Source: Methanobacteriota archaeon
GTDB taxonomy: Archaea > Methanobacteriota > Methanobacteria > Methanobacteriales > Methanobacteriaceae
DNA: 64,000 bases
Assembly: GCA_963787255.1 (NCBI GenBank)
Contig: CAWBCJ010000029.1
Coordinates: forward strand, 640,001 to 704,000
Direction: 5' to 3'
Position numbers and translations under genes: made by a program. This document shows, piece by piece, positions 49,253 through 63,926 of this stretch; within the stretch, counting starts at the first letter, position 1; each line of letters begins with the position of its first letter. The notes under the pieces are model-generated. The model did not search any database, was not told the DNA's origin, and was given only the letters and a program-made list of their open reading frames with translations.

Positions 49253-50454
49253 ATGATTCTGAATATAAGAATCGACCATAAAACAGCGGATATTTGCACA
49301 ATTGAAAAATCTACTCGTCAAATGGACGAGCTCTTTGAAAAAATAAAGAGTGAATGTATTGTAGATGAGTATATTCAGATAAAAACATGCAATCGCGCCG
49401 AACTGTATATTTTTCTAGACAATATTAACCATAATAACATTGATTTTGATAATTTTATAGTTGAAACCGATGACGATGCCTTAAAACATCTTCTTAGATT
49501 GTCATGTGGCTTAGAATCCATGATAATAGGTGAGGATCAAATATTAGGACAAATAAAAGAGGCCAGAAAAAAAGCATTTCTACAGGTTGCTGCGGCCAAA
49601 TTTTAGATACTATTTTTACTAAAGCCATCCATGTTGGCCAGTCTGTAAGAAAAAGGACAAATATTAACAAGGGATCTATTTCTATTGGTTCTGCAGCGGT
49701 TGAACTTGCAGAGTCAGTTCACGGCGACTTGAAATGTAAAAAAGTCCTTGTTATAGGTGCTGGAAAAATGGGAACTCTGGTTGCAAAGGCTCTGGCGGAA
49801 AAACACCTTAAAGCAATTGTAGTGGCAAACAGGACATATGACCGAGCTAAGTGTCTTGCAAAGGAACTTGGAGGGTCAGCAATACATTTTGATAGACTTG
49901 ATGAATCCATGAGTGATGCTGATGTTATAATAAGTGCTACAGGAGCACCTCACGCTATTTTAAATCGTGATAAGGTTAAAAATGCAGTTCCGCATGAAAA
50001 TCTCCATAAACTGGTGATGGTGGATATTGCTAATCCGCGGGACATTGACGAAGATGTTAAAGAATTAGGTGTTAAATTATTTAATATTGATGATTTAAGG
50101 GGAATAGCAGATAAAAATAAGGAAATGAGGGAGTCTGAAGCTCTTGAAGCTGAAAAAATTATTGAAGAAGAAATTTTCCTTCTTAAAAAGTCTTTAAAAC
50201 ATCTTGAAGTTGAATCTCTTATTTCAAATATAAGGGGCAAGGCAGAGAAAATAAGGATTCATGAAACAGAAAAGGCAGTTAAGATGATGGGAGATATTAA
50301 CGGTAAAGAAAAAATAATTGACGACCTCACACACGTTATGATTGATAAAATCTTCTCTGATATCATAAAGAACATTAAAACTGCAGCTGAAAATGATGAT
50401 AAAAAAATAATTGAAACTGCAGAATGTCTTTTTGCAAGAGAAAATAGTAAATGA
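49253..50454 (+). CDS. hemA: Glutamyl-tRNA reductase (apparent 1-nt deletion near 49578)
   Basis: [25 protein letters not shown], split over two frames. Confidence 0.9.
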
Positions 50455-51394: not shown

Positions 51395-51427
51395 AAATTT
51401 TTTTAATTAATTTATAGAGTGAAATTT

Positions 51428-52756
51428 ATGACTTTTGACGTTGCAGTAATCGGAACAGGCGCTGGAGGCGCCACAGCAGCAAGGGAATTATCAAAAAAAG
51501 GACTTAAGGTCTTAATTTTGGAAAAAGGAAAACGCCACAAAACAGGTACATCCGCAAATCACATTAAAAACATCCCTATAAAACTAAAAATGGATTTAAT
51601 AGATAAAAATGAAGAAAATCTTGATTTTATCCAGCTTCCTGCAGAATTGATGTACATAGAAGATGTTGGAGGTACAACTCCAGTATCTCTTGCCAACGCA
51701 TGTTATGCTTGTAGTACATGTTATGCAAATTCTGCAACAACACAATTCCAAATCCACGACCTTGATCTCTTTAAAGAACTAATAGAAGCAAGTGGAGATT
51801 TAAAAGTTAACCCGTTTCCAGCAGATTTAATGGGACCTGCAACACGTAAAATAGTAGAATGTGGAGAAAGCCTCGGATTTTTCATGGAGCCTATGCCCAA
51901 ATTCATTGATTTTTCTAAATGTGATAGCTGTGGGCAGTGTATTCAAGGTTGTACAAGGGATGCAAAATGGGACTCAACACACTTTGTAAATGAAGCAGTA
52001 GCAAAAGGTGCAACTTTAATTTCAGATTTTAAAGTCACAAGAATTATCTCAGAAAATGGAGATGTAAAAGGAATAGAAGGCATATTTGGAGATAAAACAA
52101 AATATTTTGAAGTTAAAAAAGTTATAATTGCTTCAGGAGCATTAAATACTCCTCAAATTTTAAAAAATTCAGGAATTACAAAAAATGTAGGTGAAGGCTT
52201 ATTCTGTGATCTTTTTATAACCATTGGAGGATATTTAAAAGATATAAATTATTATAAAGAAATTCCTATGGGCGTAAAATCAGAATTCGGACCTTATTTT
52301 TTATCACCTCACTTTTCAAATCAGCTGATTGAATTACTGGAAAATAAGGGAGTCAACGCTAATCCTGAAGATATCGTTGGAATAATGGTTAAAATAGCAG
52401 ATGAAGCTAATGGAAAGGTTAATGAAGATAAATCAATTGAAAAAACACTTACTAAAAGAGATTTAGACCTTCTAAAAGAAGGATATGAAAAGAGCGTTAA
52501 AATACTTGTTGAAATGGGTGTAGATCCATCTTCTATAGTTGCAACGCCTATAAGAGGTGCACATCCTGGTGGAACCGCAGCAATGGGTAGTGTAGTTGAT
52601 AATAACTTAGAAACTGAAATTAAAGGACTATATGTAGCTGATGCCAGTGTAATTCCCCAAGCCCCGGGAAGACCTCCAATTTTAACTATAACTGCACTGG
52701 CAAAAAGACTTGCTAAAAACATCTCTAACGGCATGAAAGTAAAAATAGAGAACTAA
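51428..52756 (+). CDS. GMC-family flavoprotein oxidoreductase with [4Fe-4S] insert
   Basis: GTGAGG, CDSCGQCIQGC, HPGGT, VADAS, PILTITALA. Confidence 0.85.
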   Translation: MTFDVAVIGTGAGGATAARELSKKGLKVLILEKGKRHKTGTSANHIKNIPIKLKMDLIDKNEENLDFIQLPAELMYIEDVGGTTPVSLANACYACSTCYANSATTQFQIHDLDLFKELIEASGDLKVNPFPADLMGPATRKIVECGESLGFFMEPMPKFIDFSKCDSCGQCIQGCTRDAKWDSTHFVNEAVAKGATLISDFKVTRIISENGDVKGIEGIFGDKTKYFEVKKVIIASGALNTPQILKNSGITKNVGEGLFCDLFITIGGYLKDINYYKEIPMGVKSEFGPYFLSPHFSNQLIELLENKGVNANPEDIVGIMVKIADEANGKVNEDKSIEKTLTKRDLDLLKEGYEKSVKILVEMGVDPSSIVATPIRGAHPGGTAAMGSVVDNNLETEIKGLYVADASVIPQAPGRPPILTITALAKRLAKNISNGMKVKIEN

Positions 52757-52770
52757 AAAAACGTTTATAT

Positions 52771-53808
52771 GTGATGAAAATGGAAAATATAACCGAAAAT
52801 AGGTATTCAAGACAGGCAATTTTACACAACATTGGTAAAGAGGGTCAGGAAATACTGGGGAAAAGTCATGTTATCATTATAGGATGTGGGGCACTGGGAA
52901 CAGTGGCTGCAAATAATCTTGCGCGTGCAGGAGTAGGTAAAATCTCCATTTTAGACAGGGATTTTGTTGAACTAAACAACCTTCAGCGCCAGATGCTCTT
53001 CGATCAAAATGACGTAGGGGAACCAAAAGCAATAGCGGCAACCAGAAAACTGCAGTTAATTAATTCAGATATAGAAATAGTTCCCTTAGTTAAGGATTTA
53101 AACCATACTAACATCGATGAAATAATTAAGGATACAGATCTTGTTCTGGACGGAACAGATAACATCCAGACAAGAATGCTCCTTAACGATGTTTGCGTAA
53201 AGGAAAAAATTCCCTGGATTTACACCGGAGCAATTGGAACATCGGGCATGACAATGAATATTCTTCCGGATGCTGCATGTATCCGCTGTCTATATCCAAG
53301 CATTCCTAAACCCGGATCACTTCCAACATGCGATACAATGGGAGTTTTAAACACTGTAACAGTCATTATGGGTTCAATGGCCAGTACAGAGGCGATAAAA
53401 ATACTTCTTGGAAAAGCAAAACCTCGAAATAAACAGGACAGCAGCTTAATAGTCTATGATGCATGGAATAACTCATTCGACGAAATACTTGTAAGAAAAA
53501 ACGAAGAATGTGCATGCTGCATAGATGGAAGTTTCGATTATTTAAATGCTGAAGATAGAGAAGTTATTAGTTCGCTTTGCGGTCGAAATGCTATCCAAAT
53601 AACTCCTGCAGATGCAAAAGAGTTAGATTTACACGAATTAGCATCTAAACTTGAACATTTAGGCAATATCAAATGTGCAGATTTTATATTACTTTTTAAG
53701 ACCCAAAATTATGAAATATCTGTATTTCGTGATGGAAGAGCAATAATTAAAGGAACTGATAGTGAAAAAGTGGCAAGATCAATTTATGCAAGATTTATCG
53801 GTACTTAA
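52771..53808 (+). CDS. ThiF/MoeB/E1-family adenylyltransferase
   Basis: RYSRQ, GCGALG, NLQRQ, CxxC pairs, PTCD. Confidence 0.92.
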   Translation: MMKMENITENRYSRQAILHNIGKEGQEILGKSHVIIIGCGALGTVAANNLARAGVGKISILDRDFVELNNLQRQMLFDQNDVGEPKAIAATRKLQLINSDIEIVPLVKDLNHTNIDEIIKDTDLVLDGTDNIQTRMLLNDVCVKEKIPWIYTGAIGTSGMTMNILPDAACIRCLYPSIPKPGSLPTCDTMGVLNTVTVIMGSMASTEAIKILLGKAKPRNKQDSSLIVYDAWNNSFDEILVRKNEECACCIDGSFDYLNAEDREVISSLCGRNAIQITPADAKELDLHELASKLEHLGNIKCADFILLFKTQNYEISVFRDGRAIIKGTDSEKVARSIYARFIGT

Positions 53809-53936
53809 TATTTCAAAATATGAGATAATGTGTTCATTTAGGAAATTGGTTTTAATATATATACTTAAAGGGTCAAGTATTATAAGATCAAATTTTCGAG
53901 GAATTATTTTAATTTAATATGCGAGGTACAAACGAG

Positions 53937-54542
53937 ATGAAAACCCTTAAAATAGGTGAAAATACCTTTGAACTTGCAGAAATCATTATTAATGACTTAA
54001 AAGCATCAGAAAATATTGGAATTCTTAAATGCATCCAGTGCGGTATGTGCACATCAGTCTGTCCCGCAGCAAGACATACAGACTATGACTCACGAGAACT
54101 GGTTAAAAGAGTTCTAGATAAAGACGAAAGTTTAATTTCAGACCCCATAATTTGGGATTGTTTTTACTGCTACACCTGCCACAGCGTATGCCCTGTAAAT
54201 AATAGCCCATGCGAAATAAACCAAATAATAAGACAGAAAGCTATTGATAATGGAAACGGAAAATCCAAAATAGCCCCTTTTTCGGCATACGGCGATAGTT
54301 TCCTTGAATTTGGACTTGGAGCAATTCCAAACGATTTCTTCGACGACTTGTTAAAAGATTATGGAAAGGAATGGCTTGAATTAAAGATTAATTTGGAGGA
54401 TATCCGGGAAGAATTAGGTCTTGGCCCGATATTACTGCCAGAAAAGGATGTAAATGATATTAACAAAATTTTGGAGAAAACAGGATTCACTAAAAGACTG
54501 GATAGAATAAGGCGGTGTAAAGATGAAGAAAATACCAGATAA
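53937..54542 (+). CDS. hdrC: Heterodisulfide reductase subunit C-like
   Basis: CIQCGMCTSVCP and CFYCYTCHSVCP. Confidence 0.85.
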   Translation: MKTLKIGENTFELAEIIINDLKASENIGILKCIQCGMCTSVCPAARHTDYDSRELVKRVLDKDESLISDPIIWDCFYCYTCHSVCPVNNSPCEINQIIRQKAIDNGNGKSKIAPFSAYGDSFLEFGLGAIPNDFFDDLLKDYGKEWLELKINLEDIREELGLGPILLPEKDVNDINKILEKTGFTKRLDRIRRCKDEENTR

Positions 54543-55470
54543 GGAAATTTTACTCTTTAAAAGCTGCCTTGTAAATGTTGAATATCCGGGAGTAGAATCA
54601 TCAACCAAATTTCTATTCGATAAACTGGGAATAGAATACATTACAAGTGAAAGACAGTCCTGCTGCACTGGTTTAGGACATTACGCGGATTTATTTGACC
54701 AATTTTCAACAACTACACTTTCAGCAAGAAACTTTGGAATTGCAAGAGAAGAAGAACACAAAAATATAGCCACACTATGTGCTACCTGTTATGCAATACT
54801 AAAAAAATCAGCCAATATTTTAAATAAAAAAGAAGATGTTAGAAAAAAGGTAAATACGATTTTCGACGATACAGAAATTCCTAATTTGAAATATAATGCA
54901 GATGATATGGATTCAAGAGATAATATTTTCCATGTAGCTGAAATTCTTTATAATAAGGCCGAAGAAATTGAAAATCTTGTAGAAATAGATTTATCAGGCT
55001 TTAAAGTGGCTGCACATCACGCCTGCCATTATTGTAAAGTTCATCATAATGATACTATTGGAAATGTGAGAAATCCAATGGTTATAGAAACCCTTGCTAA
55101 AGCATGCGGTGTGGAAACAGTGGACTGGTATGATCGCAAAACAAATACCTGTGGTAACGGCTTCAGGCAGCGTTACATGAATAAAGATTTATCATTTTCC
55201 ATAACAGCAGAAAAGCTGCTTAGTTTAAAGGAGAATGAAGTTGATATTTTACTTCACATGTGTCCAAATTGTCAGCTGCAATTTGACAGAAACCAGAAAG
55301 TCATTGGAGAATCAATGGATACTGAATTCAATATTATGTGCCTTAACATTTCTCAATTTATAGCTCTTGCTCTTGGAGCCGACCCTTACAAAGTTGTAGG
55401 GATTCAGACACACTCAGTTCCTATAGAACCTATTTTAAAGAAAATAAAGCAGATTAACCTATGTTTATGA
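54523..55470 (+). CDS. hdrB: Heterodisulfide reductase subunit B-like
   Basis: CCG-domain motifs SCCTG/CATC and HHACH/CPNC..QFD. Confidence 0.85.
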   Translation: MKKIPDKEILLFKSCLVNVEYPGVESSTKFLFDKLGIEYITSERQSCCTGLGHYADLFDQFSTTTLSARNFGIAREEEHKNIATLCATCYAILKKSANILNKKEDVRKKVNTIFDDTEIPNLKYNADDMDSRDNIFHVAEILYNKAEEIENLVEIDLSGFKVAAHHACHYCKVHHNDTIGNVRNPMVIETLAKACGVETVDWYDRKTNTCGNGFRQRYMNKDLSFSITAEKLLSLKENEVDILLHMCPNCQLQFDRNQKVIGESMDTEFNIMCLNISQFIALALGADPYKVVGIQTHSVPIEPILKKIKQINLCL

Positions 55471-55479
55471 GGTAAGACA

Positions 55480-57855
55480 TTGAATAACTATAATTTTTCA
55501 AGATATGCACCAAAAAGCAGTATAGATATTGGTGTTTTTTTATGCCGTTGTGGAGGAAATATTTCCGATACAGTTGACATTGAAAGGCTTAAGTCTTCAA
55601 TAGACGCTAAAGTAGTGAAGGATTTCGAAAATCTCTGCTCAATCAAGTGCCAGAAGAATATCAGGGATATTATACTGGAAGAAGATTTAGACCGGGCAGT
55701 AATTGCAGCATGTTCACCGATTACTCACGAAAAAACCTTTAGAAACCATGTAGCTCCTCTAAATCCATATCTTTTAGAAATGGCCAATATAAGAGAACAG
55801 TGTTCATGGGTGCATTCTGATGTGGATAAGGCAACGGAAAAGGCAATATCACTTACGGGTGCTGCCATTGAACGGGTTAAATACGCCAGACCACTGGACA
55901 CAATAGTTCGAAAAACCAAAAAAAGCGTCGCTGTAATAGGTGGTGGAATATCTGGAATAACTACCGCGCTTTCAATGGCAAAACAGGGCATTAAAGTATA
56001 CATAATTGAAGAAAAGCCTACAGTCGGTGGAAATATGATAAAAATAGGCAAAGTATTCTCTCCAGAAAAACTTGCAGAAGAATGTGCGCTGTGTCTTTTC
56101 AATCCACTGATAAATGAGGCAGTACAGCATAAAAATATTGAAATGATCACCAATGCAGAGCTTAAATCATCCGAAAGGAAAGCTGGAAACTTTAACTTGA
56201 TTGTCGAAAGAAAACCAAGTTTTGTTAAGGAAGATAGATGTACAGCATGCGGTAACTGTGCGGAAGTCTGTCCAGTGGATGTTCCAAATGAATGGAACGA
56301 AAAATTGATGCTGAGAAAGGCTATTTACAAACCGTTCCCGCAGTCAGTTCCTGACGTATACACAATTGATGAAGAACACTGTATTAAGTGTGGAAAATGC
56401 CAGAAAGTCTGTACAATGGATGCTATTAATCTTTCGATGAAAGGGGAAATTATGCCTCTTAACGTTGGTTCTGTGGTTATAGCCACTGGCCATAAAGGAT
56501 TTAACCTTACAAAACGTCCTGAATATGGATATGCAAGATATGATGATGTAATAACTCAAATGGAGCTTGCGAGGATAATGGGGGTTAATGGACCGACAAA
56601 TGGTAAATTACTCCAACCTTCAACTGGTAAAATTCCAAGAAGAGTGGTTATGGTTCAATGCGCAGGTTCCAGGGACGAAAAGCCTGAAGGAAAACGATAC
56701 TGTTCAAAAGTTTGCTGCATGGTGGCTTTAAAGCATGCAAACTTTATCAAACGTTACTATCCAGATACAGAAGTTATAATCTGTTATACGGATATGAGAA
56801 CCCCGGGAATGTATGAAAATTATTTTAGACATGCACAATCAAAGGAGATTAAACTAATAAGGGGAAGACCTGGAGAAATAGCTAAGAAAGGGGAAAATCT
56901 CGTTGTCAGAGTTGAAGATACTTTGAAAGGGGAACAATTGGAAATAGAAACTGACATGGTTGTTTTATCTGAGGCAATGGAGCCTTCAGAGGGAACATTA
57001 AAAGTAGCAGAAACATTGAATGTCGGTCTTACCGAAGATCTCTTCGTAAAAGAGAAACATCCAAAGATAAAGCCAGTTAGCACAGATATAGAGGGAATCT
57101 ATGTTTGTGGAACTGCACAGGGTCCAAAAGATATTACTGATAGCGTTTCCCAGGCAAACGCAGCGGCATCTAAGGTTTCAGAAATTATGAATGGGGGATT
57201 AGAGATAGAACCGACCATAGCAGTTATTGACCCTTCCAACTGTCAAATCTGTGGGGACTGTGTAACAGCATGTAAATATAAAGCTATTTACATGCAAGAT
57301 GAGCGTATATCAGTTGATGCTATTGCCTGTACTGGCTGTGGAATATGTATGTCCAAATGTAAGCATGAAGCAGTTGAAATTATGGGCCAAACAGATAGTC
57401 AACTGTATGCAATGATTTCTGGTATGTTGAAGGGCAAAAAAGATGGTGAAAGGAGAATACTGGCATTTGTAGATTATATAGGCTACGTAGCATCTGATAA
57501 CATAGGAATAAACAGGATATCCTATCCACAATCAGTTAGAATCATTAGAATTTCATCAATTAACCGTTTAATGCCGAAACATATTATATATGCATTTGAA
57601 AACGGCGCAGATGGAATATTTTTGGGTGAATATCCTGATGATATAATGTATCCGAGTATTCAAGAAAAAGTGCAACAATTCCGCTCTGCACTTATAAAAA
57701 ATAGTATAGATCCAGATAGATTGATGTATTACAAGGTTTACGCACCGTACTTTAGAGGATTGGCCAATAAATTCTATGAATTTGATAAACAGGTTAGTAA
57801 TGCCCTTGATAAGCTTGAAGCGGTGTTATACAAAGCTTCTTCTAAAGATTTATAA
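55480..57855 (+). CDS. hdrA: Heterodisulfide reductase subunit A fused to a degenerate MvhD-like domain
   Basis: AACSP, NIREQCSWVH, GGGISG, ferredoxin inserts, YCSKVCC, GPKDI; C-terminal YPQSVRIIR...GADG. Confidence 0.9.
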   Translation: MNNYNFSRYAPKSSIDIGVFLCRCGGNISDTVDIERLKSSIDAKVVKDFENLCSIKCQKNIRDIILEEDLDRAVIAACSPITHEKTFRNHVAPLNPYLLEMANIREQCSWVHSDVDKATEKAISLTGAAIERVKYARPLDTIVRKTKKSVAVIGGGISGITTALSMAKQGIKVYIIEEKPTVGGNMIKIGKVFSPEKLAEECALCLFNPLINEAVQHKNIEMITNAELKSSERKAGNFNLIVERKPSFVKEDRCTACGNCAEVCPVDVPNEWNEKLMLRKAIYKPFPQSVPDVYTIDEEHCIKCGKCQKVCTMDAINLSMKGEIMPLNVGSVVIATGHKGFNLTKRPEYGYARYDDVITQMELARIMGVNGPTNGKLLQPSTGKIPRRVVMVQCAGSRDEKPEGKRYCSKVCCMVALKHANFIKRYYPDTEVIICYTDMRTPGMYENYFRHAQSKEIKLIRGRPGEIAKKGENLVVRVEDTLKGEQLEIETDMVVLSEAMEPSEGTLKVAETLNVGLTEDLFVKEKHPKIKPVSTDIEGIYVCGTAQGPKDITDSVSQANAAASKVSEIMNGGLEIEPTIAVIDPSNCQICGDCVTACKYKAIYMQDERISVDAIACTGCGICMSKCKHEAVEIMGQTDSQLYAMISGMLKGKKDGERRILAFVDYIGYVASDNIGINRISYPQSVRIIRISSINRLMPKHIIYAFENGADGIFLGEYPDDIMYPSIQEKVQQFRSALIKNSIDPDRLMYYKVYAPYFRGLANKFYEFDKQVSNALDKLEAVLYKASSKDL

Positions 57856-57887: not shown

Positions 57888-58506
57888 CTACGATTTTTCA
57901 TGGATTGGAAGTGTAAAATAAAAAGTCGAACCCTTAACCAACTCTGATTCCACCCAAACACGACCACCATGGCGATCAATAATTCTTTTTACAATTGAAA
58001 GTCCAATTCCAGTTCCTTGATATTCTTCATTTGTGTGGAGCCTTTGGAATATGGTGAAAATTTGATCTTGATATGGGGAATTTATTCCAATTCCATTATC
58101 TTCTTGATCCTCTGCTAAAGCTTGAAAGAATAAATCAATGGGTCTTCTAAAACCATGAGGTTCTGAAGGTTTAATAAGGCCTAATACACCATTTACAATT
58201 CCTATGTCATTATTTGGGGGGATGACATACACTTTATTTGGTTTAACTGGCATGATTATCTTGAATTTCAAGTACTTCCATATCAGTATATCTTGCAATT
58301 AATTCTGCCATAGTGCTTTTATGTGTGGGATCTTAGATGTTGAATCAAAACAAATCCCATACCTGTATCTACTGAGGCATATTACTAAATAATTTCTCTA
58401 AAGCTTCCAGCCCACCTGCAGATGAACCAATACCTACTATGGGAAATTTGCCTTTTTCTTTGGAATTGACTTTTGATTTATTTAGAGTTTTATTCTGATT
58501 TTCCAC
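57888..58506 (-). pseudogene. CheB-methylesterase N-terminus joined to a histidine-kinase HATPase C-terminus (deletion remnant)
   Basis: GIGSSAGG and IQH (CheB); [23 protein letters not shown] (HATPase); frameshifts in the 5' part. Confidence 0.8.
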
Positions 58507-60164: not shown

Positions 60165-60440
60165 CTAGCCACCAGCTATAGTCTGGAAGATTACAATTTC
60201 ATCATCATCTTTCACTTCGCTTTCAAGGCCTCCTCCAGATTGTGCATCTTCTCCATTAACGAGAATTTTCATATAATCTCTTAATTCACCATTTTTATCA
60301 AATAAAGCATCTTTAAATTCATTTCCATACTTTTCAGTTAAAATATCAATTAAATCTGCAATATTTCCATTGTGATCAATATTTACAGATCTTTCTCCTG
60401 TGATATCTCTAAAACGTGCTAAAAACTTAATTTCTACCAT
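60165..60440 (-). CDS. MoaD/ThiS/SAMP ubiquitin-like sulfur carrier
   Basis: Beta-grasp pattern (KFLARFRDITG, ILVNG, DDDEI) and C-terminal GG. Confidence 0.92.
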   Translation of the reverse strand: MVEIKFLARFRDITGERSVNIDHNGNIADLIDILTEKYGNEFKDALFDKNGELRDYMKILVNGEDAQSGGGLESEVKDDDEIVIFQTIAGG

Positions 60441-62883: not shown

Positions 62884-62937
62884 TATTACATAAAAAACAA
62901 TAGAAAAAATAGATATAGTATTACAATGGTGAGAAAT

Positions 62938-63926
62938 ATGGTAAAAATACCAGAATTAAAAAGAGGAATAGCAAATAATGTAACAGAACTGATAGGAAAT
63001 ACTCCTCTTGTAAGGTTAAACAGAATTACCGAAGGGACAGACGCAGAGGTTGTAGCAAAGCTTGAATCATTCAACCCTTTAAGCAGCGTAAAAGACAGAA
63101 TAGGAGTTGCAATGATAGAATACGGGGAAGAACAGGGACTTATTAATAAAGATTCAGTTCTTAGTAGAACCTACAAGTGGAAATACCGGTATTGCACTTG
63201 CATTTGTTGCAGCAGCTAAAGGATACAAACTTATTCTTACAATGCCCGATACAATGTCCATAGAAAGAAGAAAGTTGCTTGCACTTCTCGGTGCCGAAAT
63301 TGTATTAACTCCTGGTGCAAATGGAATGAAAGGGGCTGTAGCCAAAGGCAGAAGAACTATCCGAAAGTATACCTAATGCAGTAATGCCTCAACAGTTTAA
63401 AAACCCTGCAAACCCAAAAATCCACAGGGAAACAACTGCACATGAAATATTAAGAGATACAGATGGTAAAGTAGATATATTAGTTGCAGGTGTAGGTACT
63501 GGTGGAACAATAACAGGTATTGCAGAAGTTTTAAAAGAAAAAAACCCTGATTTTAAGGCAGTAGCAGTCGAACCAATATCCTCTCCAGTATTATCTGGAG
63601 GAAAACCCGGACCGCATAAAATTCAGGGAATAGGGGCAGGATTTGTTCCTGATATTCTTAGAACGGATTTAATAGATGAAATCATTCAAGTAAAGGACGA
63701 AGACGCTGCAAGTACATTATTAAGACTTGCAAGAGAAGAAGGAATACTTGCAGGTATATCATCAGGGGCTGCAACATGGGCTGCCATTGAACTTGCAAAA
63801 AGAGAAGAAAATGAAGGTAAAAGGATAGTAGTAATTCTACCAGATACAGGAGAAAGATACTTAAGTATGGACTGGGTATTTGAAGAAGTTTTCCATACCT
63901 ACAATCAAAAGGATTTCTCCAACTAA
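62938..63926 (+). CDS. cysK: Cysteine synthase A (two apparent 1-nt insertions near 63163 and 63346)
   Basis: [43 protein letters not shown]. Confidence 0.9.

Follow-up and report, generated by a model that had tools for sequence, protein, structure and literature searches.

The window analysed here, a stretch of 64,000 nucleotides from a Methanobacteriota archaeon of the family Methanobacteriaceae (assembly GCA_963787255.1, contig CAWBCJ010000029.1, positions 640,001 to 704,000), encodes a soluble heterodisulfide reductase (Hdr) whose HdrA subunit ends in a true MvhD/FlpD domain without a single cysteine. HdrABC is the core of methanogen energy coupling, and on the way to its bifurcating flavin the [2Fe-2S] cluster of MvhD is the last station known. 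To judge by the orthologues of this HdrA, the loss of the cysteines is old and fixed, and it most likely closes the MvhD-type electron entry. The explanation that we prefer, to which as a whole we give a probability of about 0.6, is that the domain is an apo-MvhD, that the usual donor route is closed, that the domain fills the MvhD site, and that electrons come in from ferredoxin or as hydride. The gene and the domain in question are:

55480..57855, + strand: hdrA, 791 aa; NF041891 hdrA_Methbact, 1424.5 bits against a cut-off of 1300, profile positions 2-760 of 762; domain order N-terminal Fe-S, FAD/thioredoxin-reductase, inserted ferredoxin, C-terminal ferredoxin, Cys-less MvhD-like
57457..57798, + strand: MvhD/FlpD-fold domain (Pfam FlpD PF02662), HdrA aa 660-773, all five conserved MvhD cysteines gone

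The cysteine-free MvhD domain of HdrA

The sequence-only reading of this DNA had claimed that positions 57400-57855, which correspond to HdrA aa 641-791 and thus to the C-terminus of the 791-aa open reading frame, follow the MvhD pattern and yet contain no cysteine, and both halves of the claim are borne out. When the domain was aligned with the MvhD/FlpD hidden Markov model, the check which that reading had itself proposed, aa 660-773 matched PF02662 with an E-value of 2.7e-22 (79.5 bits against a cut-off of 22.3, profile positions 1-120 of 123). A phmmer search of the PDB sequences returned seven distinct matches at E<=1, six of them to MvhD-type chains (5odc_D at 7.2e-11, 9sfi_K, 8rvu_F, 8rvv_F, 9sw2_D and 7bkb_F at 1.5e-5) and the seventh to an unrelated FabZ (E 0.64). 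The AlphaFold2 model of aa 645-791, built on a 17-sequence alignment (A1, from which locus L015 was left out), has a predicted local distance difference test score (pLDDT) of 91.2 and a predicted template modelling (TM) score of 0.85. The four best Foldseek matches of this model in the PDB are all MvhD/ElpC chains (5odh_D, 5odc_D, 8rvu_F and 7bkb_F), on which the predicted fold superposes with TM 0.73-0.83 and a root-mean-square deviation of 1.8-2.2 Å over 125-126 columns; the fifth match falls to TM 0.38. The homology is far beyond chance, and the idea that the domain is not related to MvhD is ruled out by the Pfam, phmmer and fold matches together.

The lack of cysteine is equally real. HdrA has 30 cysteines, the last of which is residue 627, and none at all between residues 628 and 791. 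In the HMMER alignments the MvhD motifs FCCNWC, VMCSGR and GGCHLGDC stand opposite FV-DYI, ISSINR and GE-YPDDI, so that both the conserved ligand cysteines and the extra cysteine of a functional [2Fe-2S] connector are absent. An acidic residue is mostly kept, across 115 orthologues, at the column of MvhD Asp70/71.

Those 115 orthologues are the query and 114 full-length members of the 120 best database hits, six hits outside the range of 760-810 aa having been dropped; the 120 hits share 57-95% identity with the query, and every one that is named belongs to Methanobacterium, Methanobrevibacter or Methanobacteriaceae. The five old MvhD cysteine columns are occupied by Leu/Val/Met, by Ile/Val/Thr, by Ser (113/115), by Glu (114/115) and by Leu/Pro/Ile/Val. 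Only the last of the five ever holds a cysteine, in 8 of the 115 sequences, and the complete ligand set occurs in none. Strain-specific decay, with orthologues that retain the cysteines, was the outcome that the sequence-only reading had named as fatal to its claim; it is ruled out, since the orthologues lack the ligand cysteines too. Mean identity to the query is 63% in the MvhD-like domain, compared with 53% (C-terminal ferredoxin domain) to 76% in the other domains of HdrA, and 24 residues of the domain are at least 98% conserved. In the comparison with the nearest of the fetched loci, the domain has a dN/dS of 0.09 and the HdrA core one of 0.045; more distant pairs were saturated, with dS undefined. 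The substitution pattern indicates purifying selection, by which the domain is maintained as a structural component of the enzyme.

A six-frame search of 151 Methanobacteriaceae genomes from 27 genera, the window's genome among them, gave the same picture (counts were read by hand). A strong match to the domain, which we define as E <= 7e-40 at 45-100% identity and which lay nearly always within an open frame of about 770-800 aa, was present in 122 genomes spread over most of the 27 genera; 27 genomes had only weak matches (about 1e-8 to 1e-10), comparable to what their canonical MvhD gives, and two had none. Eight genomes of three genera possess a second Cys-less HdrA copy, about 45% identical in the domain. 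At the one such locus that was fetched (L020, G108:C1:551200-563700), the copy is accompanied by a divergent hdrC and hdrB of its own, and genes for FecCD/ABC-transporter and periplasmic-binding proteins flank it.

The wider HdrA clade and the probable route of electrons

The loss reaches beyond the family. In a HMMER scan of 1.84 billion cluster representatives, in which the whole Methanobacteriaceae family is folded into one representative, 29 proteins among the best 150 that were inspected have an FlpD-type domain. Eight further representatives lack the ligand cysteines (P0122, P0129, P0127, P0136, P0263, P0148, P0125 and P0226), two keep only two of the cysteine columns (P0179 and P0190), and 18 keep at least four of the five conserved cysteines (P0191 is one short). 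By the annotation of the metagenome-assembled genomes (MAGs) from which they come, P0122 is from Methanoperedenaceae, P0129 from Baldrarchaeia and P0125 from Syntrophoarchaeum; the cysteine-bearing P0169 is a Methanothrix 'HdrA2'. P0127 scores 1492 bits on NF041778 (cut-off 1400) and has an FlpD-like domain at a Pfam E-value of 2.2e-13. Its relatives (82-88% identity) lie on Methanosarcina or Methanosarcinaceae MAG contigs in the order hdrA-hdrC-hdrB, which is the order given for the hdrA1C1B1 operon MA3126-3128 of Methanosarcina acetivorans in a passage of PMC9963511, and they have none of the canonical cysteines, with a single cysteine at a non-canonical place.

A quick IQ-TREE tree of 38 hand-picked rows was computed from the columns of the HdrA core, those of the domain having been taken out; proteins of at least 900 aa, the fragment P0226 and most canonical HdrA rows were left out. 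Thirteen of the 16 Cys-less rows fall into one clade (Shimodaira-Hasegawa-like approximate likelihood ratio test, SH-aLRT, 99), which joins the Methanobacteriaceae proteins, the paralogue from L020, Syntrophoarchaeum, Methanoperedenaceae and Methanosarcina HdrA1. The remaining three form a second clade (SH-aLRT 99). At least two losses are needed; as the canonical rows do not lie on one side of a branch, the root of the tree is uncertain. As far as this core tree goes, cysteine loss is the mark of an HdrA clade that comprises the second Hdr of Methanobacteriaceae, Methanosarcina HdrA1 and relatives named Methanoperedenaceae or Syntrophoarchaeum.

The rest of HdrA keeps its motifs. The protein aligns over aa 16-654 with solved HdrA chains (9sfi_A at E 1.6e-169, also 5odc_A and 8rvu_a), and its cysteines cluster at 22/24/53/57/78, 202/205, 254-264, 301-311, 408/412/413 and 588-627. 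All the features expected of a bifurcating HdrA core are predicted from these alignments, namely the flavin adenine dinucleotide (FAD) fold, the N-terminal cluster cysteines, the inserted and the C-terminal 2x[4Fe-4S] ferredoxin domains and the cysteine pair C202/C205. By its motifs, then, HdrA is a protein in which the FAD and [4Fe-4S] sites are intact and only the MvhD station is gone.

The same genome also encodes a canonical HdrA that lacks the extra domain (42% identity in an alignment to aa 16-664), a canonical HdrB (32%), and two canonical, cysteine-bearing MvhD genes that score 187.9 and 182.3 bits against 81.9 bits for the HdrA domain in the same search. One of these free MvhD genes adjoins the genes for the small and large subunits of a [NiFe] hydrogenase (MvhG and MvhA); the other lies between two FrhB/FdhB-family genes with a ferredoxin-like gene, an Elp/Flp-like arrangement comparable to the F420-dependent, electron-donating Elp module of Methanothermobacter (the two loci are G000:C29:185977-189345, L002, and G000:C29:58791-62159, L001). 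The cluster in the window is therefore a second, paralogous Hdr, and the normal route is served by another enzyme. According to passages of PMC12350162 and PMC13580544, electrons pass the [2Fe-2S] cluster of MvhD or ElpC before they reach the bifurcating FAD of the partner HdrA, with a conserved HdrA cysteine pair in between. Since Mvh, Fdh and Elp electrons reach the FAD only through the MvhD/ElpC cluster in the solved complexes, the Cys-less class of Hdr is most likely disconnected from those donors. Profile matches of the window genes revealed no MvhAG, FdhAB, ElpAB or FrhB-type donor gene in the hdrCBA cluster. That this Hdr cannot use the normal electron input, as the sequence-only reading put it, is thus a supported inference, which combines the established structures around the MvhD cluster with the absence of its cysteines.

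On the basis of these observations, we propose the following model. The domain would hold no cluster. Fused to HdrA, it probably fills the MvhD site on the mobile arm of HdrA, so keeping the architecture of the arm and perhaps blocking free MvhD. Ferredoxin would deliver electrons at the inserted ferredoxin domain, or a hydride donor would reduce the FAD directly, and the electrons would leave through HdrC and then HdrB.

The cluster consists of five closely spaced genes on the + strand in the order GMC, ThiF, hdrC, hdrB, hdrA. Those before hdrA are:

51419..52756, + strand: GMC-family flavoprotein; Pfam GMC_oxred_N and GMC_oxred_C, seven invariant cysteines; accessory neighbour
52771..53808, + strand: ThiF/MoeB-type E1-like adenylyltransferase; Pfam ThiF E 6.5e-78; accessory neighbour
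53919..54542, + strand: hdrC, two [4Fe-4S] motifs; NF041890 hdrC_Methbact, 310.6 bits against a cut-off of 270
54523..55470, + strand: hdrB; NF041780, 530.9 bits against a cut-off of 450; Pfam CCG twice, T-C-G replacing C-C-G in the C-terminal CCG domain

The change in HdrB accompanies the change in HdrA. Compared with the canonical C-C-G of 8rvu_b and of the genome's own canonical copy, HdrB has T-C-G at aa 209-211, in a protein whose N-terminal CCG domain is complete, and T-C-G is shared by every one of the 18 further HdrB proteins examined that are partnered with a Cys-less HdrA (13 Methanobacteriaceae and 5 Methanosarcina loci; L008-L019, L021-L026). An extra cysteine lies nearby in the Methanobacteriaceae proteins (A-C-H-Y-C-K) but not in Methanosarcina HdrB1 (A-C-H-Y-Y-K). 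Ligation of the active-site cluster may accordingly differ in the clade of Cys-less HdrA, to go by these motifs. In the third Hdr set, at L020, the pattern is reversed: the first motif reads S-C and the second C-C-G.

Several points weigh against the model. The three NCBIfam families NF041891, NF041890 and NF041780, whose curated cut-offs are all exceeded here, are named as subunits of ferredoxin:CoB-CoM heterodisulfide reductase (CoB and CoM being coenzymes B and M), and this name is an NCBI annotation, not an assay. No biochemistry on the NF041891 family was met in the literature passages to hand, in a survey that made no search aimed there. At the former ligand columns, or next to them, four non-cysteine residues are conserved (Ser in 113/115 and Glu in 114/115, together with Tyr/Phe and Asp/Asn/Glu), which makes another bound metal or cofactor possible. 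HdrA2 of M. acetivorans, which keeps its cysteines, is assigned one Fe2S2 and is described as oxidising F420H2 without other subunits in a passage of PMC5296606; as it does so with its cluster kept, an HdrA need not lose the cluster to be driven by hydride. Finally, since the second CCG motif of HdrB is altered in the clade, the substrate may differ from CoM-S-S-CoB.

The protein family itself is already known and has been named by NCBI; what appears to be new is the Cys-less state of its MvhD domain. In the open full text that we searched, known to us in part, neither an MvhD domain without cysteines nor this Hdr of Methanobacteriales is mentioned, and supplementary alignments may show the missing cysteines uncommented. 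A passage of PMC6019823 states that HdrA1 lacks an MvhD extension, and the 2025 classification in PMC12054007, in the part consulted, has fused forms carry MvhD 'with one [2Fe-2S] cluster' in a fusion that 'may improve electron transfer'. Both views, as worded in those passages, would need correction: HdrA1-type proteins do have an MvhD-like extension, and a fused MvhD does not simply improve electron transfer. A widespread Hdr clade that keeps the MvhD fold without its cluster would offer a structural reason why HdrA1-type enzymes are not linked to hydrogenase or formate, and the five cysteine columns provide a simple sequence marker by which 'HdrA-MvhD fusions' can be sorted into cluster-bearing and apo classes.

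Alternative roles and partners

A different role is suggested by the genes that surround the cluster in other genomes. Flanking hdrCBA on the same strand in five of the 14 fetched loci (L013, L014, L015, L017 and L018) are comA, which encodes phosphosulfolactate synthase, and a gene for a COG1900 protein that is methanogenesis marker 16 (MMP16; TIGR03287, 522-551 bits against a cut-off of 364). The five loci represent five other genus-level groups, their closest named HdrA proteins being from Methanobrevibacter or from Methanobacteriaceae MAGs; the genes occur in two orders, upstream and downstream, with a spacing of a few bases in three loci. MMP16 is identified as the CoM synthase ComF in a passage of PMC12068725. 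In 26 of the 151 genomes searched, from six genera, comA and the HdrA C-terminus are no more than about 7 kb apart. Cys-less HdrA and ComA occur together in 120 genomes, Cys-less HdrA without ComA in 2, ComA without Cys-less HdrA in 15, and neither in 14; in other words, 14 of the 16 genomes that lack comA also lack the Cys-less HdrA, and 8 of the 16 belong to one genus. Further sulfur-linked neighbours are the ThiF E1, a ThiS-like gene, a cysteine-desulfurase-like Aminotran_5 gene, cysS and sufBD. From the literature, again in passages, M. ruminantium is without comADE and needs CoM (PMC10658910), hdrABC transcripts rise in a delta-MMP16 M. acetivorans starved of CoM (PMC12068725), and a delta-hdrABC M. 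acetivorans is rescued by sulfide, or by CoM plus acetate (PMC9963511).

All of this would fit an Hdr of thiol or coenzyme M biosynthesis rather than of energy metabolism, one that passes electrons to MMP16/ComF or to another sulfur-transfer step, or reduces a disulfide or persulfide for it, and in which the apo-MvhD domain insulates the Hdr from bifurcating donors. The two gene orders, the proximity of comA in six genera, the paired absences, the sulfur-related neighbours (ThiF, ThiS-like, Aminotran_5, CysS and SufBD) and the two mutant phenotypes all speak for it. However, the 15 genomes that keep ComA without a Cys-less HdrA imply that this Hdr is not required for CoM synthesis. Adjacent genes may go in a single deletion; the genomes are related, with half of those that lack comA in one genus, so that the two-by-two table overstates the association; and the genome of the window itself has comA and MMP16 59-68 kb away. 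Moreover, PMC12068725 and PMC9963511, in the passages concerned, explain their data by recycling of the heterodisulfide.

We therefore consider a biosynthetic role rather unlikely, and give the same weight to its general form, in which the whole deep clade of soluble Hdr with an apo-MvhD on HdrA and T-C-G in HdrB would be the redox partner of CoM or thiol biosynthesis (through MMP16/ComF or a ThiF/ThiS-type relay) and not a spare catabolic Hdr. If true, it would account for the comA-MMP16-hdrCBA clusters, for the loss of comA together with this Hdr from Methanobrevibacter-like genomes that depend on CoM, and for the CoM and sulfide phenotypes of hdrABC in M. acetivorans. The link to comA and MMP16, with the joint loss, makes the physiological role of this Hdr a testable question, and one of relevance to the Methanobrevibacter of rumen and gut, where CoM supply is a target for methane mitigation.

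The sequence-only reading had pointed to the GMC protein encoded at the head of the cluster as a candidate partner of the apo-domain. In the fuller form of that proposal considered here, the domain would dock the GMC-FeS protein, which would oxidise some alcohol or hydroxy-acid and feed the electrons to Hdr. Seven cysteines of the GMC protein (C95, C98, C101, C168, C171, C174 and C178) are invariant in 22 orthologues and form the motifs C-x2-C-x2-C and C-x2-C-x2-C-x3-C. Its model has a pLDDT of 81.8, with low confidence in the cysteine loops; the best Foldseek matches of the predicted fold (TM 0.70-0.78, 16-18% identity) are the large subunit of fructose dehydrogenase (9jqa_A, TM 0.76) and the alpha subunit of Burkholderia FAD-glucose dehydrogenase (8grj_B and 6a2u_B), and a search of the ESM Atlas gave generic 'GMC oxidoreductase' clusters only. 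Fructose dehydrogenase and FAD-glucose dehydrogenase have an Fe-S cluster (3Fe-4S) that passes electrons to a partner subunit.

The distribution is less favourable. With an orthologue defined by at least 52% identity, and positions relative to the HdrA C-terminus compared by hand, GMC orthologues are present in about 52 of the 151 family genomes and in about 49 of the 122 that have a Cys-less HdrA. In 35 genomes they lie upstream on the same strand, at most about 7 kb from the HdrA C-terminus; in 4 they are about 11 kb away (in L010, the one inspected, directly before hdrCB), in 4 on the same contig without being adjacent, and in 6 on another contig, while the remaining 3 genomes have no Cys-less HdrA. 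The 35-39 genomes with the gene near or at the Hdr cluster span 8-9 genera. About 73 genomes with Cys-less HdrA have only a 40-49% identical GMC paralogue, elsewhere. Among the 14 fetched loci, GMC and ThiF stand before hdrCBA in three (L008, L009 and L021, ThiF lying between GMC and hdrC) and GMC alone in one. More generally, some GMC match occurs in 150 of the 151 genomes, and the family genomes examined for it have a paralogue of 39-49% identity away from the Hdr cluster, for example at G000:C25:318974-320152.

This distribution argues against the GMC protein as an obligatory partner (about 49 of 122 genomes; 4 of 14 fetched loci), a reading that we reject, and the Methanosarcina HdrA1 loci are without an orthologue. 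The proposal is weakened by the great age of the Cys-less state and by its presence in lineages and genomes that lack this GMC orthologue; on the core tree the state is older than the association; the GMC protein is neither the cause of the cysteine loss nor a general partner, but an accessory. A domain without a cofactor would also offer no obvious path from the dock to the FAD. In the window, the 110 nt between ThiF and hdrC (53809-53918) are AT-rich with a TATA-like stretch, TTTTAATATATATAC, which suggests that hdrCBA may have its own promoter and be transcribed separately from GMC-ThiF. What stands is the recurrence of the gene beside the cluster in 8-9 genera together with its predicted dehydrogenase fold, by virtue of which the GMC protein is plausible as a lineage-specific electron donor. 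Docking of GMC on the apo-domain, which the recurrence, the invariant cysteines and the modelled resemblance to fructose and FAD-glucose dehydrogenases support, and which the three genomes that have GMC without HdrA and the ten fetched loci without GMC oppose, we regard as improbable.

That the domain might still bind a redox or metal cofactor through ligands other than cysteine, and relay electrons as MvhD does, is very improbable in our view. The conserved Ser (113/115) and Glu (114/115), the Asp/Asn/Glu at the column of MvhD Asp70/71, and H701 and D665, which are at least 98% conserved, could be taken as such ligands, but two of the replacement columns are aliphatic, and no Fe-S cluster is known in which Ser, Glu, Val/Leu and Ile/Val take the place of all the cysteine ligands. 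That the domain is merely left over from a past fusion, without function, a view for which the disappearance of the only cofactor known for MvhD would speak, is scarcely credible: its dN/dS is 0.09, its conservation is above that of the C-terminal ferredoxin domain, and it is full length in 114 of the best 120 hits and kept across orders.

Known relatives and the surrounding genes

The closest known counterpart of the window's Hdr is HdrA1B1C1 of M. acetivorans (MA3126-MA3128; NF041778, NF041779 and NF041780), with the proviso that the comparison used five Methanosarcina MAG loci and not the sequence of MA3128 itself. Like it, the Hdr described here belongs to the same HdrA clade, has a Cys-less FlpD-like C-terminal domain, has an HdrB of the same family with the same T-C-G, and is a soluble Hdr that exists alongside another main Hdr. 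The two differ in that the HdrA proteins are only about 42% identical (the query scores 841 bits on NF041778, under the cut-off of 1400), that the Methanosarcina order is hdrA-C-B and that of the query hdrC-B-A, and that the five Methanosarcina loci are without the extra HdrB cysteine and without GMC, ThiF or comA neighbours. With HdrA2 of M. acetivorans (NF040770), from the F420H2/ferredoxin-dependent bifurcating HdrA2B2C2, the query shares an MvhD-type domain fused at the C-terminus and a similar length and domain order. In contrast to the query, HdrA2-type proteins keep the five conserved cysteines (11 of 11 rows) and lie in other parts of the tree, and the query reaches 778.3 bits on NF040770, under the cut-off of 1100.

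The domain has the fold of the MvhD, VhuD and ElpC connectors (5odc_D, 7bkb_F and 8rvu_F) and shares their YP.S.RII.. and GADG stretches; unlike these connectors of the Mvh-Hdr, Fdh-Hdr-Fmd and Elp-Hdr complexes, it is fused and has no cysteine ligands, and unlike the genome's two free MvhD genes it is not encoded beside a hydrogenase, Fdh or FrhB-type gene. Similarly, the GMC protein resembles the large subunit of Gluconobacter fructose dehydrogenase and the alpha subunit of Burkholderia FAD-glucose dehydrogenase in having a GMC fold with a Cys-rich insertion, and differs from them in its 16-18% identity and in its seven invariant cysteines in two motifs.

The five genes of the cluster are separated by 14 nt (GMC-ThiF), 110 nt (ThiF-hdrC), -20 nt (an overlap of hdrC and hdrB) and 9 nt (hdrB-hdrA), and the order hdrC-hdrB-hdrA is constant in all 14 fetched loci. 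The nearest database HdrA proteins, at 82-95% identity, bear the name Methanobacterium (M. oryzae, for example, at 90%), which assigns the window to a Methanobacterium. Among RNA libraries, only one run contained about 5% of the sampled words and yielded ten short contigs, 90-99% alike, over GMC, ThiF, hdrC, hdrB and hdrA; these are from a relative in a soil metatranscriptome and do not demonstrate transcription of the window's own locus.

Elsewhere in the window hemA is divided over two open reading frames (49253-49606, GlutR_N, and 49729-50454, Shikimate_DH with the dimerisation domain), a cysK-like PALP enzyme over another two (62926-63219 and 63384-63926), and a lone HATPase_c/CheB fragment lies at 57888-58298 on the - strand. 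Frameshifts, pseudogenes or errors in the assembly may explain these apparently split or truncated genes, the draft genome being 95% complete with 4.6% contamination. The ThiF-like protein of the cluster scores 332 bits on NF009123, under the cut-off of 510. At 60165-60440 on the - strand, 2.3 kb downstream of hdrA, is a gene for a small ThiS/MoaD/Urm1-like protein with a Gly-Gly end, which is also found downstream in L010 and L021 and is a possible substrate of this E1-like enzyme.

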